Assembly: GCA_963704165.1 (NCBI GenBank)
Contig: CAVPHD010000004.1
Location: 254,429-318,428, forward strand
Source: an uncultured delta proteobacterium
GTDB lineage: Bacteria > Myxococcota_A > UBA9160 > SZUA-336
Length of the DNA: 64,000 nt
Reading direction: 5' to 3'
The position numbers and the translations under genes are program-made. Under the pieces are notes generated by a model. It was given only the letters and a program-made list of their open reading frames with translations. It ran no database searches and was not told the DNA's origin. Below, in pieces: positions 8,826-17,120 of this stretch (position 1 is the stretch's first letter; every line of letters begins with the position of its first letter).

Positions 8826-9839
8826 GTGGACCTGCGAACCCTGGGCGAGTTCGGGCTGATCGAGGCCATCCGAAGGCGCGCGCGCGTCGATCGGCGTGTC
8901 TGGCGGCTCGGAATCGGCGACGATGCGGCGATCCTGCGCGCGCGTCCGCGAGAGGACCTCGTTCTGACGACGGACGCGCTGGTCGAGGACGTGCACTTCC
9001 GCTGGATCACGACGGACGCGCGCTCGCTCGGTGAGAAGTCGCTCGCCGTGAATCTCTCGGACATCGGCGCGATGGGCGCGAAAGCGCTCGGATGTCTGCT
9101 CACCCTCGGCGTGCCCGGGAGCGTCGAGTCGTCGCAGCTCGACGGCTTTCTCTCGGGTCTCCTCCGGCTCGCACGTGCGAGTCACTGCCCGCTCGTCGGA
9201 GGAGACACCGTGCGAGCTCCGCAGTGGCTGATCAACGTGACCGTCGTCGGCGCGGTCACGAGCGGCCGCGCATTGCTGCGCTCGGGCGCGCGCGCGGGCG
9301 ACCGGATCTTCGTCACCGGGGACCTCGGCGGCGCGGCGGCGGGGTTGGCGCTCCTCTCCGGTCCCGGTGTTTCGACGGCCGCCGAGCGACGCCTGGCCGC
9401 ACGTCAGCTGCGGCCGCGTCCGCCATTCGGCGCCGGCTCGGCGCTCGTGCGCGGTCGGCTCGCGCGCGCCGCGATCGACGTCTCGGACGGGCTCGTCCAG
9501 GACCTGGGCCACGTCGCGCGGGAGAGCGGCGTGGCCGCGCGCGTCGATGTCGAGCGCGTCCCGATCGCGAGCGGACTCGCGCGCACTGCCTCGCGGTTGG
9601 GTCTCGATCCACTCGGCCTCGCGCTCGCGGGGGGCGAGGACTACGAGCTGCTCTACGCGTCGCCCCCGGAACGGGGAACGGCGGCTTCTCATGCCCGCAA
9701 GCTCGGCTGCCGCGTCACGGAGATCGGAGTTTTCACCCCGGGCTCCGGTGTGCATTTCGTGCGCGCCGGGCGCAGATACGAGCCCGAAGCTGCCGGTTTT
9801 CAGCACTTCAAGCCGGCCCGCGCAGACTCCGAGAAGTAG
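8826..9839 (+). CDS. thiL: Thiamine-monophosphate kinase
   Basis: [48 protein letters not shown]. Confidence 0.95.
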
Positions 9840-9883
9840 CGAGATGGCCGCATTTCGCGGCGAACTTGCGTTCGGAAGGGCTC

Positions 9884-11134
9884 GTGCGGTTCGACCTCTC
9901 CCAGAAGCTCGTACTCGGCTTCACCACGGCAATCGCCATCGGTGCTGGAATCACTCCGGCTCTGCACTGGCTCGGCGTGCCCGGGTGGGGCGCGTTCTTC
10001 GTCGTGATGCTGCTCGGGATCGGGCTGGGCTGGGTCTACGCGGGACAGATCACCGCGAACTTCCGCACGCTGCGCGGCTGCACCGAGCGGATCAGCCGCG
10101 GCGACCTGACGGCCGAGATCGACATCGAGGCCGGGCGCCGATTTCCGGACGAAACCGTGGACCTCGCGCGTTCCGTCGGTGGGATGCTGCAGAAGCTCCG
10201 CGAGCTCGTCGATCACATCCAGCGCGCGGCCGAGGAGGTCGCACAGTCCTCGCGTGACGTCGCGACCTCGTCGCAGAGCGTGAACAGCACGAGTCACGCA
10301 CTCGGCGCGACCATGGAGACCGTCTCCTCCGGCGCCGGACAGCAGCAACGGGACGTCGAGCAGATCCGAGCGCGCATCCACGACATCGCCGACTCACTGC
10401 GCGCGAACGCCGATGCCGCACGCCGTGCGTCGTTGCTGACGAGCGAGGCCAGCCAGAGGGCGACCGCGGGCGTGGACGTCTCGCGGCTTTCGCAGGCGAA
10501 GATGGAGAGCCTGTTCGAGCGAATCGAGCAGGCGGGGCACCGGGTCGAGAGCTTCGAGGGCAAGATCCACTCGGTCCATCGCGTCACCGAGATGATCTCG
10601 AGCGTCGTCGAGAAGACGCACCTGCTCTCGCTCAATGCGTCGATCGAGGCGGCGCGTGCGGGAGACGCGGGCCGGGGTTTCTCGGTCGTCGCCGAGGAGA
10701 TCCGCAAGCTCGCCGAGAGCGCGGGCAGCTCCGCCGAGCAGATCGAGGATCTGATTCGCGAGCTCGAAGAGGAGTCGAAGCGGATTTCGCAGGCGACGCT
10801 CGCGATGCGCGACGACGTGCGCGGTGGCCGACAGGACCTCGAGGCGATCTTCGTCGCGCTCGAGAAGGTCCAGGGTGCGGTCACCGAGGCCTCGAATCGC
10901 GCCGAGGACATCTTCCAGAAGGCCGGCAGCCAGGCCGCGGACTCCGAGCGCATGGTCGGCGACGTCGAGCGCGTGGCGATGGTCGTCGGGCAGAACGCCA
11001 AGGCGATGAACGAGATGCGCGGCGGACTCGCCGCCCAGACACGCACGATGGAACAGCTGGTGCGCGAGGCCGCGCGCCTGTCGGACATGTCGGTCGAGCT
11101 CGGCGAGGTCGCTCGCCGGTTCCGGACCCGGTAG
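9884..11134 (+). CDS. Methyl-accepting chemotaxis protein, DifA-like (two TM helices, no periplasmic sensor, HAMP, signalling domain)
   Basis: GTG at 9884. Two closely spaced hydrophobic helices, then HAMP, then [32 protein letters not shown]. The longer ORF start at 9092 overlaps thiL. Confidence 0.92.
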
Positions 11135-11148
11135 GCGAGGGCGGGAGC

Positions 11149-11616
11149 ATGGAAAAGACCCCATGGCTGCGCTTCGAAGTCTCCGGGCAGGCGTACGCGA
11201 TTCCGCTCGCGTCGGTCGTCGAGGTCACGGGTGCCGTTCGTCCGCACTTGATCCCGCGCATCCCGCTCGACATCGGCGGGGTTCTCAACGTGCGCGGCGA
11301 ACCGCTGCCCGCGGTCGACGGCGGCGCGCTGCTGACGGGATCGAGCTCGAAAGGACACCGTCACGTGTTGGTTCTCGAGCGCAGCGCGCTGCGGATCGGC
11401 GTGCTGGTCGGACAGGTGCGACGGATCGAACGCGAGCTCGCGACGGAGCCGCAGGCGCAAGGCTCGGCGGAAGCCGAACTCGTGCGTTGGGTGAATCAGG
11501 ATGATTCCGCCCTGGGGCTGGTCGACCCCGAAGGGCTGATCGAACGGGCGACGATGCTGCTCACGGATCAACGCAAGCAGCCGGGAGGACAGGAGTCATG
11601 GCACACCGGATTCTGA
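11149..11616 (+). CDS. cheW: CheW coupling protein
   Basis: [23 protein letters not shown]...[22 protein letters not shown]. Confidence 0.9.
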
Positions 11617-11972
11617 TCGCGGACGACGCTGCATTCATGCGTGAGATGCTGCGCGACATACTGACGGACGGGGGCTACGAGATCGTGGGCGAGGCCGCCG
11701 ACGGCAACGAGGCCGTCTCGGCCTTCGCCAAGCATCTCCCCGACCTGCTGACACTGGACATCGTGATGCCGCGCAAGAGCGGCCTCGAGGCGCTGCGCGA
11801 GATCACCGCGGCGCATCCGGGCGCTTGCGTGGTGATGTGCAGCGCACTGGGCCAGGAAGCGCTCGTGATGGAAGCTCTCGAGGCCGGTGCGCGCGACTTC
11901 ATCGTCAAGCCCTTCAAGCCGGACCACGTTCTCGAGGTGGCGCAGAAGGCTCTCGCGAAGTCCGACGACTGA
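11598..11972 (+). CDS. cheY: CheY-like single-domain response regulator
   Basis: ILIADD, TLDIVMP, MCSALGQ, FIVKPF. Confidence 0.95.
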   Translation: MAHRILIADDAAFMREMLRDILTDGGYEIVGEAADGNEAVSAFAKHLPDLLTLDIVMPRKSGLEALREITAAHPGACVVMCSALGQEALVMEALEAGARDFIVKPFKPDHVLEVAQKALAKSDD

Positions 11973-11985
11973 CCCGGGACCTCTC

Positions 11986-13583
11986 CTGAACCTCGAGAAG
12001 TACAGGACGCTCTTCGTCGACGAGGCGGGTGACCATCTCCAGGAGATGGGTCGCGCGCTCGCGGCGCTGTCCGCCGGCGACGAACCGGTCGAGAGCGCGA
12101 TCGACACGCTCTTCCGCATGGCCCACTCGATCAAGGGCATGGCGGCGTCTCTCGACTACGATGCGGTCTCGTCGCTCGCACATCGGCTCGAGGACTGGAT
12201 GGAGCCGCTTCGCGCGGGCGCCGACTTCGATCGTTCGCAACTCGATCTGCTCGCCGAGGCGATCGCCGCGCTCGAAGAGATGGTCGCCTGTGTAGACGAG
12301 AACGGTGTTCCCGCCGAGGCGCGCGAGGATCTGCTCGCGCGGCTCGCGCAGAAACGCGAAGACGCGACCGCGATTCAGCCCGGGCTCAAAAAAAAACTTC
12401 CGAGACCGCGGCAGCGCCGCTCCCACGCACGGTTCGCGTTCGCACGGAGGCGATCGACCGCTTCCTGGCCGCGGTAGGCGTGCTGATGCAGGGCCAGGCT
12501 CGCCTGGAGGAACTGCACCGGGAGGCGCCCTACTGGACCGGACACGGCGCGTTCAACGACGAGCTGGACCAGCTCGCGCGCGTCGTCCGCGACCTGCGCC
12601 GCCATGCGCTCGACATCCGAATCACTCCTGTGCGGCGAATTCTGGAGCGCTTGCCGCGCGTGGCGCAGGACCTGGCCCGCGAGCTCGGGAAGCTCGTTCG
12701 CGTCGAGTTGGTCGGGGAAGAGGTCGAGGTCGATCGGGCGGTGCTCGACCACCTCGACGATTCGCTTCTGCACCTCGTCCGCAACGCGATCGACCACGGT
12801 CTCGAGACCGAGGCGGAGCGACGGGCCGCGGGCAAGGATCCCGTCGGGACGCTGCGCATGCGCGCGTCGCGCGTGGCCGGCCGGCTGCAGATGCGGCTCG
12901 AGGAGGACGGGCGCGGGATCGAGATCGAGAAGGTCCGCCGGCGCGCCATCGAGCGCGGTCTCCTGCTCGAGATGGTGGCCGAGGATCTGCCGCCGGGTCG
13001 GATTCTCGAGTTCATCTTCGAGCCCGGAATCTCCACACGCGACAGTGTCAGCGACATCTCCGGCCGGGGCGTCGGACTCGACGCCGTGAAGCGACAGATC
13101 GAAGCCCTCGGTGGAACGATCTCCGTCGAGAGCAGCCCCGGAAAGGGAACCGCGTTCCTGCTGGACCTGCCCTCGATGGTCGCGTTGCAGCGGGTGCTCG
13201 TGCTGCAGGTGGCGGGTGAGCGCGTCGCGCTGCCGATCTCGACCGTCGAGGCGGTGCTCTCGGTCGAGGAAGCGGCGATCGAGCGGGCCGGTGTCGACGC
13301 CTTCTTCATGCTGAAGGAGGAGCCCCTGCCGCTCGTCGATCTGGGACCGCGACTCGGCGTGGCCAGGACTCGCGCGACGGGCGGCTGTGTCGTCGTCGTG
13401 GAGGCGCGCGGCTTCAAGCTCGGTCTGCTGGTGGACCGCGTGATCGACGACCTCGAAGTCTTCGTGCGCGAGACGCCGCCACCCCTGCGCGAGCTGGCAC
13501 CGCTCGGCGGCGTCGCGATCCTGCGCGACGGCACACCCGTCTTCCTGCTCGAGATCATCTCGCTCGTGGAGAACTTTCCATGA
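11986..13583 (+). CDS. cheA: CheA histidine kinase, split by a -1 frame change at the A9 run 12388-12396 (Hpt 11986-12477; dimerisation, kinase and CheW domains in the -1 frame)
   Basis: Hpt LFRMAHSIKGMAA. The -1 frame after the A run reads KTSETAAAPLPRTVRVRTEAIDRF, then HLVRNAIDHG, EDGRGI, FEPGIST, SGRGVGLDAV. Start is probably CTG at 11986. Confidence 0.92.
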
Positions 13584-14134
13584 GCGATGCGTCCGATCGG
13601 CTCGCCGAGATCGCGAACATCTGCGCGGGCCACGCCTCGAGCGCGCTCGCGGAGCTGCTCGACGCGACGCTCCTGTTCGAGCCGCCGACCGTCCATCGGC
13701 TCGCCGCCGGTCGGCCGCTCGATACGCTCTTCGACCGCGAGGACCGCGTCGCCGCCGTCTTCGTCGAGCTCGAGGGCGTGTTCTGCGCGGAGGCCGCGAT
13801 CCTGCTTTCCGCGACCGCGGTCGAGGAAGTGCTCGCGCGCGTCGCCGGCAAGAGCGCGGACGAAACCTCCGAGGTCTCCGCGCTCACGGTCCTCGCAGAA
13901 GTCGGAAACATCGCGCTCTCCGCCGCAGCGAATGCGCTCGCTCTGCTGCTCGGCGGGCGATCCCTTCCCTCGGTGCCGCGCGCGGGCTACGCGCGTCAGG
14001 GCAGGTTGACGATGCATGAACTCTCGCGCAGCTCGCCCGACGCTCGCACGGTGGTGGTCGTGGAGCTGGTCGAACGCGCGGGTCCGCTGCGTCTGCATTT
14101 CGCGATCGCGCCAGCGGACGAGGCGATCGACTAG
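13580..14134 (+). CDS. cheC: CheC-like phosphatase
   Basis: Two ExxN motifs (LAEIANICAGHASSAL; LAEVGNIALSAAANAL); position after cheA. Confidence 0.88.
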   Translation: MSDASDRLAEIANICAGHASSALAELLDATLLFEPPTVHRLAAGRPLDTLFDREDRVAAVFVELEGVFCAEAAILLSATAVEEVLARVAGKSADETSEVSALTVLAEVGNIALSAAANALALLLGGRSLPSVPRAGYARQGRLTMHELSRSSPDARTVVVVELVERAGPLRLHFAIAPADEAID

Positions 14135-14145
14135 ACTCTCTCGCG

Positions 14146-14895
14146 ATGGATCGCGATCGGCTCAACGCACTCCTCGAGAGCTTCGCGCGCGGCGACCTCC
14201 AACGCGAAGAGTTCATGGAGACGCTCGCGAAGCTTCCGTTTCAGATGCTGGGCGACGCGCGCGTCGATACGCATCGCTCGCTGCGAACCGGTTTTCCCGA
14301 AGTCGTTCTCGCCACCGGCAAGACCGCCGATCAGATCGCGCGGATCGTACGCGTGCTTCGCGACGCCGGCGGCGACGTTCTCGTGACGCGCGCGACGGCC
14401 GAGCAGGCGAGAGAGCTGTCCGGCACCGTTCCAGAACTCCAGTACCTGTCGGAGGCCCGCTTGATGGTGCTCCGACAGACGCCGCTCGTCGTTCGTGGGC
14501 GCGGGGTGATCGCGGTGGTCTCGGCCGGGACGTCCGACCTGCCCGTCGCCGAGGAGGCGGCCCTCATCGCAGAGCACTTCGGGAACAAGGTAGAACGCAT
14601 CTACGACGCGGGCGTGGCCGGACTGCACCGGTTGCTCGCGTCGCTCGACGTGCTGCGCGGCGCCTCGGTGGTGATCGCGATCGCGGGCATGGAGGGAGCC
14701 CTCGCTTCCGTCGTCGGCGGACTCGTGGCCGCGCCGGTGATCGCAGTGCCGACGAGCATCGGCTATGGTGCGTCCTTCGGTGGTGTCGCGGCGCTGCTCG
14801 CGATGCTCAATTCCTGCGCCGCGAACGTCACGGTGGTGAACATCGACAATGGCTTCGGAGCCGCGTACGTCGCGTCGCTCATCAACCGCGCCTGA
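14146..14895 (+). CDS. larB: Nickel-pincer cofactor biosynthesis protein LarB (PurE-like)
   Basis: RTGFPEVV, SAGTSDLPVAEEA, DAGVAGLHRL, AGMEGALASV, VPTSIGYG, VNIDNGFGAA. Confidence 0.93.
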   Translation: MDRDRLNALLESFARGDLQREEFMETLAKLPFQMLGDARVDTHRSLRTGFPEVVLATGKTADQIARIVRVLRDAGGDVLVTRATAEQARELSGTVPELQYLSEARLMVLRQTPLVVRGRGVIAVVSAGTSDLPVAEEAALIAEHFGNKVERIYDAGVAGLHRLLASLDVLRGASVVIAIAGMEGALASVVGGLVAAPVIAVPTSIGYGASFGGVAALLAMLNSCAANVTVVNIDNGFGAAYVASLINRA

Positions 14896-14902
14896 ATCCG
14901 GC

Positions 14903-16085
14903 GTGCGCGGCGATCGCGTCCTTCATTTCGACTGCTTCTCTGGCGCGTCTGGCAACATGCTGCTCGGCGCGCTCCTCGACGTCGGTGCACCGGCAGCTTC
15001 GGTGCGAAAAGCGATCGCAGGACTCGGGGTCGGGCCGGTCCGGATGAAGCTCTCTCGCGTCGAGCGCGGCCCGATCAGCTCCCGCTACGTCGCGTTCTCG
15101 GCCCGAGAGCACGACCATCACGGCCGGACCTTTCGCACGGTCCGCGCGATCCTGCGCAAGGCTCGTCTCTCCGAGCGCGTGCGCGAGCGCAGCCTCGACG
15201 TCTTCGAGCGACTCGCGCGTGCCGAGGGCCGAATTCACGGCGTTCCGATCGAGCGCGTGCACTTCCACGAGGTCGGAGCGATCGACGCGCTCGGCGACAT
15301 CGTCGGGGTCTGCGCTGCCGTGGAGTCGCTCGACGTCGCGCGCATCAGCTGCTCGCCGCTGCCCCTCGGGCGTGGCGCCGTGGCGACCGAGCACGGAACG
15401 ATCCCGCTTCCCGCACCGGCGACGCTCGAGCTCTTGCACGGTGTGCCCACCTTGCCGCTCGACGTCCGCTGGGAGACCGTCACGCCGACCGGCGCCGCAC
15501 TGCTGACGTCGCTCAGTCGACGAATTCGGCGCGATGCCCGCGCTGCGCACGCTCGCCCAGGGCTTCGGCGCGGGCGACGACCGCAAGGGCCCGCTTCCCA
15601 ATGTGCTGCGAGCGGTGCTCGGAGAACTCGAGCCGGGTCTCGGGCGCGATCACGTCGCCTTGCTCGAGACGAATCTCGACGACATGAGCCCGGAACACAT
15701 GCCGTTCCTGATGGAGCGTCTGCTCGACGACGGCGCCTTGGACGTCTCGCTCGTTCCGCAGCTGATGAAGAAGGGCCGGCCGGGCCAGCTTCTGCGCGTG
15801 CTCGCCAGACCCGCGGATGCCGATCGGCTCGCGCGCCGCGTGCTCTCGGACTCGAGCGCCCTCGGTGTGCGCGTTCAGATCGTTCCGCGACTCCTGCGTG
15901 CGCGCAGCGCGCGCACGGTGGCGACCCCGTACGGCGCGATCCGCGTCAAGCTCGCCGGACTCGAAGGCAAGGAGATCAGCGTGAAGCCCGAGTACGAGTC
16001 GTGTGCGCGAGCGGCGCGGCGTCACGGTGTGCCGATCGCGAGAGTCACGCGAGCGGCGGATCGCGCCGCGCGGGAGCTCGAATGA
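14903..16085 (+). CDS. larC: Nickel insertion protein LarC, frameshifted near 15515 (one extra base)
   Basis: FDCFSGASGNM, HFHEVGAIDA, PLPAPAT, TPTGAALL; continues in the +1 frame as VDEFGAMP...LETNLDDMSPE...MKKGRPG...KPEYE. Confidence 0.9.
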
Positions 16086-16843
16086 AGGCCGACGGAACCG
16101 CCTTTCGACTCGGCGACCCGCGCGGTGGCGCCGCGCCCGCCGTGCTCTGCGTCCACGGTCTCACCGGCACGCCCTACGAAGTTCGGCCCCCGGCCGAAGC
16201 GCTGGCCGAGGCCGGGTTCTTCTGCGAAGGACCGGTCCTTCCCGGCCACGGCACCCGCCATCAAGATCTGGCTTCGACGCCGCGCGACGCCTGGGTCGGA
16301 GCCGTCGTTGCCGCACACGACTCCCTCGCCGATCGACACGAACGTGTGTACGTCCTCGGTCTCTCGCTGGGCGGACTCCTGGCTCTATCGCTCGCGCAGC
16401 GACGGGCGGTTTCGGCCGCGGTCGTGCTGGCCGCTCCGATCGACCTCGGGCCGTTGATTCGGAACGCCGTGCCCTGGCTCTGGCCGCTCGTGCGATCGCT
16501 TCCGAAGACGCCCGCGATCTTCGACGACGCCGCACGGGAGCGTCATCCGGGTTACGACCGGATGCCGATGCGTGCGGTGAACGAGCTGATCCGTCTCGCG
16601 CGCGAGGTCGAACGCGATCTGCGCGAGGTGCGCGCCCCGGTTCAGCTCATCTTCAGCCGACGTGACCCGACCGTTCCCGTTCACAACGCCGAGCGGATCC
16701 TATCCGCGCTACCGCCCGGCGATCGAGAACTCCACTGGCTCGAGAATTCCGCACACGTGCTGCCCGTGGATCGGGAGCGCGACCTGGTCGCCCGCCGAGT
16801 GGTCGAGTTCCTGCTTCGGCAGGAGAAAACTGCGAGTGGTTGA
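16082..16843 (+). CDS. Alpha/beta hydrolase (carboxylesterase/lipase-like)
   Basis: LCVHGLTGTP, LPGHGT, nucleophile GLSLGG, DPTVP, SAHVL triad spacing. Confidence 0.9.
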   Translation: MKADGTAFRLGDPRGGAAPAVLCVHGLTGTPYEVRPPAEALAEAGFFCEGPVLPGHGTRHQDLASTPRDAWVGAVVAAHDSLADRHERVYVLGLSLGGLLALSLAQRRAVSAAVVLAAPIDLGPLIRNAVPWLWPLVRSLPKTPAIFDDAARERHPGYDRMPMRAVNELIRLAREVERDLREVRAPVQLIFSRRDPTVPVHNAERILSALPPGDRELHWLENSAHVLPVDRERDLVARRVVEFLLRQEKTASG

Positions 16844-16868
16844 CGGCAGCGTCCGGGCTGGGAATCCT
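16840..16868 (+). promoter_or_regulatory. Putative sigma70 promoter of the histone gene
   Basis: TTGACG-N17-AATCCT about 40 nt upstream of the ATG; weak -10. Confidence 0.4.
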
Positions 16869-16907
16869 AGGACACGAACCACGAACGGTTCCGGGGGCGA
16901 AGACGTA

Positions 16908-17120
16908 ATGGCGGAGATTCCCGCGGCCGCAGTGAAGCGGCTGCTGACCAAGCATGGCAGTGAACTGAGAACGTCCGGGACGGCAGTCGAGCTGGCCGTG
17001 GCCGCAGCTGAAGAGTACATCGCGCGGCTCGCCCAAGAGGCGAGCGCATCGGCTCAGCGCGAGAAGCGCAAGACGATCATGGACGACGACATCAAGAAGG
17101 CCCGGCAGGTCGTCGGCTAG
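16908..17120 (+). CDS. Histone-fold protein, archaeal HMf-like singlet
   Basis: MAEIPAAAVKRLL...RTS...(33 aa)...RKTIMDDDIKKA matches the HMf pattern ELP...R...RVS...RKTIxxED. Confidence 0.85.
   Translation: MAEIPAAAVKRLLTKHGSELRTSGTAVELAVAAAEEYIARLAQEASASAQREKRKTIMDDDIKKARQVVG

Follow-up and report, generated by a model that had tools for sequence, protein, structure and literature searches.

A conserved nine-adenine run in cheA of an uncultured Myxococcota bacterium as a very probable recoding site for a free phosphotransfer domain and a full-length chemotaxis kinase

Conserved recoding is rare in bacterial chromosomal genes, prfB, dnaX and a handful of others being the examples usually cited, and we know of no conserved case in chemotaxis or two-component signalling. 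The present work concerns cheA of an uncultured delta proteobacterium (Myxococcota_A, UBA9160, SZUA-336; assembly GCA_963704165.1), in which a run of nine adenines (A9) separates the phosphotransfer domain P1 (Hpt) from kinase domains that lie in the -1 frame. This gene belongs to a 64,000-nt stretch of contig CAVPHD010000004.1 (positions 254,429 to 318,428), referred to below as the window; coordinates are positions in this window, with features on the + strand, unless they are marked as genome C2, C5 or C9. The dnaX gene provides a first point of comparison, as its recoding into tau and gamma relies in Escherichia coli on a -1 frameshift at A_AAA_AAG and in Thermus thermophilus on transcriptional slippage at an A9 run, with a "reversed" arrangement of two open reading frames (ORFs) in Chlorobi-type genomes (PMC1088944, PMC3711429). 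The cheA site resembles dnaX in that an interdomain poly-A site in a chromosomal gene would lead to short and long products sharing their N-terminus. Run lengths likewise vary among orthologs, with or without a hairpin, A9 being the very length of the Thermus site, and both arrangements occur, recoding being needed for the long product in most cheA loci and, as predicted, for the short product in three. By contrast, CheA is a chemotaxis histidine kinase and not a replicase, its predicted short product amounts to an entire phosphotransfer domain, which might be active in trans, its heptamer is A_AAA_AAA instead of the A_AAA_AAG of E. coli dnaX, and the cheA genes of this genus lack a Shine-Dalgarno-like or hairpin stimulator.

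Transposases of the IS3 family produce OrfA and, by -1 frameshifting at A_AAA_AAA or A_AAA_AAG, usually with a 3' structure, OrfAB. The heptamer, the -1 relation and the need for recoding to obtain the long fusion product are the same in cheA, which is a conserved housekeeping signalling gene and not a mobile element. Poly-A recoding was also described in Shigella mxiE and in magnesium-chelatase or DUF111 genes (PMC1088944, PMC3711429), where slippage on an A run similarly fuses two ORFs into a longer functional protein; these are, however, other genes, and no role was proposed for their short product. As regards CheA itself, a split form exists in Rhodobacter sphaeroides, with CheA3 (P1-P5) and CheA4 (P3-P5) (PMC6829392, PMC3591291). 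Like this pair and like the CheA-short of E. coli, the locus described here would divide one kinase function between two polypeptides, its P1 being open to phosphorylation in trans. The Rhodobacter proteins nevertheless come from separate genes with their own starts, whereas here a frame change is needed and a full-length kinase would also be made, and CheA-short, which arises from an internal start and lacks P1, is the opposite of the short product considered here. No earlier report of recoding in cheA, or in any chemotaxis gene, was found in the literature searched; cheA and chemotaxis are unmentioned in Antonov 2013 and its supplements, in Sharma 2014 and in the available part of the Atkins 2016 review.

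The A9 run (12388..12396) stands in the context CTC-AAAAAAAAA-CTT (12385-12399), in the linker between P1 and P3. It is read as three AAA codons in the 0 frame, which continues as ...IQPGLKKKLPRPRQRRSHARFAFARRRSTASWPR* up to the TAG at 12475..12477. The 0-frame ORF (11986..12477) counts 163 codons from the CTG at 11986, and its product by standard decoding comprises P1, Lys-Lys-Lys and a 26-aa Arg-rich tail. The Pfam Hpt match (5.5e-17) covers residues 39-131 of the translation P0001 (nt 12001-12279), and the phospho-accepting motif AHSIKG is present in the 0-frame part. The -1 frame reads ...KKTSETAAAPLPRTVRVRTEAIDRFL... past the run and is open to the end of the gene (12396..13583), encoding the rest of the linker, the P3 dimerisation domain (12426-12614, H-kinase_dim, 6.8e-06), P4 (12759-13172, HATPase_c, 3e-15) and the CheW-like P5 (13194-13571, CheW, 9.8e-18). 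The domains of a P1-P3-P4-P5 type CheA are present in order, split over two frames. The product joined across A9 has 533 aa and the organization P1-P3-P4-P5, without a P2 domain; its predicted junction is ...GLKKK-TSETAAAPLPRTVRV..., and the predicted junction peptide is GLKKKTSETAAAPLPR. These data agree with the original prediction, made from the letters of the window, which had singled out this run as the longest A/T run noticed, had noted three AAA codons in a genome preferring AAG, a 163-aa Hpt product and, after a -1 shift or one extra A, a full CheA of about 532 aa, and had proposed programmed slippage in the linker giving two products. We consider that the A9 run is very probably such a programmed recoding site, giving rise to free P1 and full-length CheA.

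Conservation of the run, together with its broken frame, is the main argument for this. The A9 is indeed the sole A/T run of nine in the window, with none in 100 dinucleotide shuffles of the window, and the sole one of nine or more in the 3.87-Mb genome, where A/T runs of length 7, 8 and 9 number 7, 3 and 1, respectively, and AAA accounts for 7.2% of Lys codons. By our rough arithmetic from base composition, a single A9 or T9 arising by chance in 3.9 Mb is nevertheless not very unlikely, and the argument therefore rests on conservation and not on rarity. In all 10 congeners having the cheA locus, a run occupies this same place in the linker, and the -1 relation between the Hpt and kinase parts is unchanged. 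Nine of them read CTC-A9-(C/G)NN, while the remaining one reads CCA-A9, i.e., an A10 derived from a CTC-to-CCA substitution that leaves the frame relation unaltered, so that the length is A9 in 10 of the 11 genus loci (window and nine congeners).

This pattern extends well beyond the genus. A search of 225 genomes of the class found an ortholog in 188, and 118 further loci were retrieved; the frames of the Hpt and kinase parts were typed by tblastn in 146 loci. As many as 125 of these 146 require a -1 shift at a linker run of A7 to A11, in line with the expectation that an alignment of orthologs would reveal a kept A run and a broken frame at the same linker. The other loci are in frame with a longest linker A run of at most three (16 loci), in frame with an A8, A10 or A10 run (three loci), or in need of a +1 or -2 shift at an A7 (two loci, from two species of one genus). 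The shifted loci span 10 of 11 families and 47 of 64 genera, and their runs are A7 in 64, A8 in 13, A9 in 19, A10 in 28 and A11 in one. The heptamer A_AAA_AAA is in the 0-frame phase in every one of them, all 64 A7 loci included, and the run ends exactly on a 0-frame codon boundary in 122. A FastTree phylogeny built from the kinase part implies no fewer than 12 switches between shifted and in-frame loci, and no fewer than 14 between short and long runs. Within the family of the window, in-frame forms are interspersed among shifted ones and, as other families have the same site, the simplest account is one of repeated loss. KK is absent from the linker in all 16 in-frame, run-less orthologs, which indicates that the Lys residues exist for the sake of the nucleotides and not of the protein.

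Five run-bearing loci depart from the common form. In L053, L096 and L148, the A8 or A10 run is in frame and a -1-frame stop follows 1-8 codons past the run; judging from their sequences, they represent a reversed arrangement as in E. coli dnaX, where slippage would make the short product. In L119 and L152 (genomes G088 and G089, of one genus in another family), the site reads CAA AAA AAG GCC TGA and the kinase frame is +1 relative to Hpt, an arrangement that a -1 ribosomal slip cannot restore and that, on sequence grounds, would require the transcript to lose one A, or else a shift by +1 or -2.

The kinase half of the gene bears the marks of a protein that is translated and selected. When this genome was compared with seven congeners, dN/dS lay between 0.06-0.32 in the Hpt part and 0.10-0.28 in the kinase part, with dS of 0.36-0.71; both halves are under purifying selection, and cheA is accordingly not a pseudogene. 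The kinase frame contains no ATG, GTG or TTG from its last upstream stop until the GTG at 12480, a codon some 20 residues into the Pfam match to the dimerisation domain, in the P3 helix. The 32 codons 5' of the run in this frame contain no Met, Val, Leu or Ile, and consequently no NTG or ATH codon. The stretch preceding this GTG, PLPRTVRVRTEAIDRFLAAVG, is nearly invariant across the genus and, over codons 10-33 past the run, variable columns number 5, 1 and 12 at kinase-frame positions 1, 2 and 3, respectively. Such a pattern of variation indicates translation in the kinase frame and, as there is no upstream start, ribosomes on this stretch must come from the Hpt frame. The start-less ORF conserved in the -1 frame is what -1 frameshifting calls for.

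These data bear directly on the possibility of a truly split kinase of the Rhodobacter CheA3/CheA4 type, in which Hpt and P3-P5 would be separate proteins and no recoding would occur, the kinase having its own start, for example by termination-reinitiation at GTG 12480 or ATG 12486 past the TAG at 12475-12477. The genus does keep a 0-frame TAG located 3-9 nt 5' of kinase-frame GTG and ATG codons, the split CheA proteins of Rhodobacter do function in trans (PMC6829392, PMC3591291), and cheA itself apparently uses a weak CTG start. However, initiation at these codons would remove the first 20 or so residues of the H-kinase_dim match, RTVRVRTEAIDRFLAAVG, which are invariant in the genus and whose codons vary almost only at kinase-frame third positions. 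The first available start is thus inside P3 and not 5' of an intact P3, no NTG or ATH codon is found from 32 codons 5' of the run to 12480, and L011 has ACC in place of the ATG. Class-wide, 52 of the 125 shifted loci lack any start codon 5' of P3. We therefore reject reinitiation on the basis of the missing starts, here and in these 52 loci, and of the codon-position pattern, and consider a split kinase to be quite improbable. An error in the DNA sequence was another explanation to be weighed, i.e., a homopolymer miscall hiding an in-frame A10 (or A7) and an ordinary single-ORF cheA. The assembly, with 12 contigs and 84% completeness, does contain private indels, and homopolymer errors do occur in it: within the conserved GAGLGGGHDEREQTLNQ motif, ftsH is interrupted at a G10/C10 run (genome C9:47321-47330), almost certainly by a miscall. 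The A9 length in this genome consequently rests on its relatives and not on reads. The larC gene is divided between two frames in the window, in keeping with the claim that most other frameshifts of the window lie outside homopolymers, which holds for larC, the one checked.

The relatives nonetheless make a miscall exceedingly improbable, since the CTC-A9 context and the frame break recur in nine other species of the genus, the congeners being Myxococcota metagenome-assembled genomes (MAGs), several of them from short-read megahit or SPAdes assemblies, and since the break is common to 125 orthologs. In addition, JGI metagenome contigs were scanned with a pattern in which the spacing from GCTC to the conserved sequence beyond the run was free to vary from 6 to 13 nt. 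All 11 true matches had exactly A9 and were out of frame (for at least one, the contig is that of an already counted MAG, and a twelfth match was spurious). An exact-protein look-up of the kinase ORF, intended for near-identical strains, gave no match. On this comparative evidence the frame break is considered genuine and the run length fixed in DNA, as anticipated by the original prediction when it preferred slippage to an under-called homopolymer. A fixed length also argues against a DNA-level phase-variable (contingency) switch. Homopolymers are admittedly hypermutable, and the run is in frame in three orthologs, requires +1 in two and is lost in 16, as could be expected from such a switch or from a decaying pseudogene. 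Run-length polymorphism with ON and OFF states was nevertheless not found among the genus loci or the JGI matches, all of which have A9 apart from the one substitution-derived A10; 125 of the 130 run-bearing loci are in one and the same out-of-frame state, and dN/dS remains at 0.1-0.3 3' of the break with dS up to 0.7. A switch or a pseudogene is thus very improbable.

The short product may itself be under selection. Its 0-frame tail overlaps the conserved beginning of P3 and, within the genus, varies at 11 of 23 positions, compared with 5 of 23 in the kinase frame, as expected of an overlapped frame. The TAG is formed by the kinase-frame Val codon GTA (12474-12476), and GTA represents 2.4% of Val codons genome-wide, yet all 11 genus loci and all 11 true metagenome matches have it at the site of the 0-frame stop. 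The cheA genes of the genus contain 20 GTA among 585 Val codons, and 11 of these 20 are at this very site. As a rare codon is kept there, these sequences suggest selection for termination at the 0-frame TAG. Together with the three reversed loci, the conserved 0-frame stop favours a role for the short product, without proving one.

As regards the machine that slips, the addition of one A to the messenger RNA (mRNA) and a -1 slip of the ribosome lead to the same protein. The locus offers substrates for both: where the two frames meet, a homopolymeric A/T run of the size associated with transcriptional slippage, about 8-9 or longer (A9 here, A9-A11 in 48 of the 125 shifted orthologs), and an A_AAA_AAA heptamer in the 0-frame phase at 12390-12396, the last 7 nt of the run, as in -1 ribosomal frameshifting. 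Transcriptional slippage, the route originally put forward, is thus one of two live options. The small hairpin GCGGC-AGC-GCCGC that had been pointed out 11 nt downstream is present (12408..12420) but does not stand as a stimulator: it is weak, not conserved and not above background. In 14 sequences of the family, RNAalifold found no conserved pairs in the first 27 nt past the run and little covariation. The single-sequence fold past A9 has a z-score of -0.56, and the best local hairpin of the window (-9.6 kcal/mol) is weaker than control places in the same genes. No stimulatory hairpin or pseudoknot was found 5-9 nt past the heptamer in the genus, whereas such hairpins are enriched in A7/A8 relatives. 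Inspection by eye of the 30 nt upstream of the run in the genus sequences revealed no conserved GGAGG or AGGGAG-like element, and an Rfam scan of 11000-14500 gave no credible match.

Hairpins are enriched elsewhere in the class. The best hairpin starting 2-10 nt 3' of the run was compared with six control places in the same genes. Its median reached -21.9 versus -15.6 kcal/mol in the controls for A7 loci (Mann-Whitney p 1e-19) and -19.6 versus -15.9 kcal/mol for A8 loci (p 6e-4), both p values being uncorrected for relatedness, with no enrichment for A9 and A10 loci (p 0.19 and 0.84). Stops in the third frame within 30 codons were more frequent in long-run loci (33/48) than in short-run ones (17/77), a raw trend in the direction of transcriptional slippage for long-run lineages, where early closure would limit junk products.

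The nine-long run matches the length of the RNA-DNA hybrid and no 3' stimulator is conserved, and for these two reasons RNA polymerase slippage is favoured here. Thermus dnaX slips transcriptionally on a run of this same length (PMC1088944), and in E. coli the shifting obtained with poly-A cassettes rose from 10% with A7 to 40% with A9 and 63% with A11 (PMC3711429). If the recoding is programmed, we put the chances of RNA polymerase being the main route at this A9 as about evenly balanced, with a probable contribution from ribosomes that slip by -1, or slide, on the in-phase heptamer. The same site and products could also result mainly from ribosomes, through a tandem -1 slip on A_AAA_AAA or sliding on AAA codons by tRNA-Lys(UUU), with transcriptional slippage as a minor component; we regard this as a serious candidate, towards which we lean somewhat short of evenly. 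It is in line with the invariable phase of the heptamer, the A7 loci included, with a 3' boundary that stays in phase through at least 14 changes of run length, and with the enriched hairpins at canonical spacing in A7/A8 relatives, such as the 9-bp stem located 5 nt past the run in L126. The genome indeed has a tRNA-Lys(UUU), AAA being a rare codon, and ribosomes were shown to slide along poly-A in E. coli (PMC4363877). Such a route is, however, less easily reconciled with the absence of a conserved 3' structure or Shine-Dalgarno-like 5' element in the genus, with the two A's beyond the heptamer that all genus sequences keep amid a variable linker, and with L119 and L152, which need a +1 or -2 event beyond the reach of a -1 slip. 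The conserved phase, moreover, may be merely inherited, indels being forbidden on both sides.

Apart from the homopolymer errors of the assembly mentioned above, several observations weigh against programmed recoding decoded chiefly by RNA polymerase. The 16 orthologs devoid of the site manage without it, and free P1 is accordingly not indispensable. In this genome, the third frame (12305-13219) is open for 273 codons past the run, where the congeners close after 19-106. Transcripts having lost one A would thus encode a long fusion of Hpt to junk sequence, which disfavours heavy transcriptional slippage and would make a bidirectional slip of RNA polymerase costly. Neither the association of run length with the hairpin nor that with the third-frame stop is significant over seven supported phylogenetically independent pairs (p ~0.25-0.6), the direction of these seven contrasts being consistent. 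Among four mixed genera, the hairpin rule fits two and two are ambiguous. That the 3' end of the run keeps strictly to one phase in all 125 shifted loci suits ribosomal frameshifting at least as well as transcriptional slippage. Finally, an IS3-family transposase of the same genome (genome C2:111842-111848, minus strand, outside the window) displays GCA_AAA_AAA_TGG_TGA at its OrfA/OrfB junction, with OrfB in the -1 frame, a site that may be taken, by homology, as one of -1 ribosomal frameshifting.

From a mechanistic point of view, standard decoding would produce the 163-aa free P1 protein ending at the TAG, while a fraction of expression events would enter the -1 frame at A9 and yield the 533-aa P1-P3-P4-P5 kinase, by the favoured route because RNA polymerase adds one A to part of the transcripts. 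The efficiency of slippage would then set the ratio of free P1 to full kinase from a single gene. Both the identity of the slipping machine and this efficiency are inferred. We likewise suppose, by analogy, that free P1 takes part in signalling. P1 serves as a trans substrate for the kinase core of CheA, in E. coli also in its liberated form. The P1 of Rhodobacter CheA3 is phosphorylated by CheA4 (PMC6829392), and split kinases are predicted to alter input-output behaviour, with ultrasensitivity and bistability (PMC3591291). By comparison with these systems, the kinase core could phosphorylate free P1 in trans, and free P1 could then supply CheY with additional phosphate, compete with its tethered counterpart or act as a sink, a sink or shuttle being the role originally put forward for it. 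More modestly, the site and the weak CTG start may do no more than throttle the synthesis of CheA relative to that of the upstream cheW and cheY.

This start is itself unusual. The probable, non-canonical start codon of cheA is the CTG at 11986..11988, which precedes a conserved NLEKY; the corresponding codon is CTG in seven congeners, TTG in four, and GTG or ATG in other genera. In the relative L005, an in-frame TGA lies four codons 5' of it, with no canonical start in between. These comparisons point to a conserved weak or coupled initiation. The stop codon of cheY (TGA, 11970-11972) indeed lies 13 nt 5' of the cheA start. Pfam searches of the window proteins place cheA in a cluster composed of a methyl-accepting chemotaxis protein (MCP) gene (9092..11134, MCPsignal, E 1.4e-28), the first listed gene of the cluster, followed by cheW (11149..11616, CheW, E 6.6e-17), cheY, a response regulator (11598..11972, Response_reg, E 1.7e-28), cheA and, directly 3' of it and overlapping its stop, a CheC/CheX-like phosphatase gene (13580..14134, CheC, E 1.2e-11). 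A second CheA paralogue, in frame and outside the window (genome C5:230227-231375), has 36% identity and a 929-aa open frame, so that the genome has at least two chemosensory kinases. Further downstream in the window come larB (14146-14895) and larC (14849-16085; Pfam Ni_insertion, formerly DUF111). In the latter, profile positions 1-205 are in one frame and 199-374 in another, with a break near 15507-15535 where there is no homopolymer. As the ORF is intact (414-426 aa) in nine congeners, these sequences are consistent with a private indel or an assembly error and not with conserved recoding. The ORF at 16662-17120 contains a histone-fold domain (Pfam CBFD_NFYB_HMF 4e-12, Histone 6.8e-11) and may encode a bacterial histone-like protein.

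Taken together, these elements lead to a broader proposal, which as a whole we hold to be rather unlikely and offer tentatively: the A run would be an ancient, class-wide device setting the ratio of free P1 to full-length CheA, on which either of two interchangeable decoders could act. Where a 3' hairpin accompanies A7 or A8, lineages would rely on -1 ribosomal frameshifting, and hairpin-less lineages with A9 to A11, such as this genus, would rely on RNA polymerase slippage, long runs elsewhere in the class often having an early third-frame stop. The run class would have switched at least 14 times, with repeated loss of the site. Free P1 would be a working component, phosphorylated in trans and feeding or draining CheY, and the efficiency of slippage, hence chemotactic gain, could respond to physiology, for example to the supply of lysyl-tRNA(UUU) or to nucleotide pools.

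Annotation pipelines will label such cheA genes as pseudogenes, or as a stand-alone Hpt plus a truncated kinase, in hundreds of Myxococcota genomes. From A7 with a hairpin to hairpin-less A11, with reversed forms and losses, the clade offers a natural series in which ribosome and RNA polymerase can be compared for the same frame change. If programmed recoding of cheA is true, a histidine kinase would be expressed together with an excess of its own liberated phosphotransfer domain, in a ratio written into the mRNA. This would constitute a new design principle for chemosensory pathways, as well as a natural test of split-kinase models (PMC3591291).

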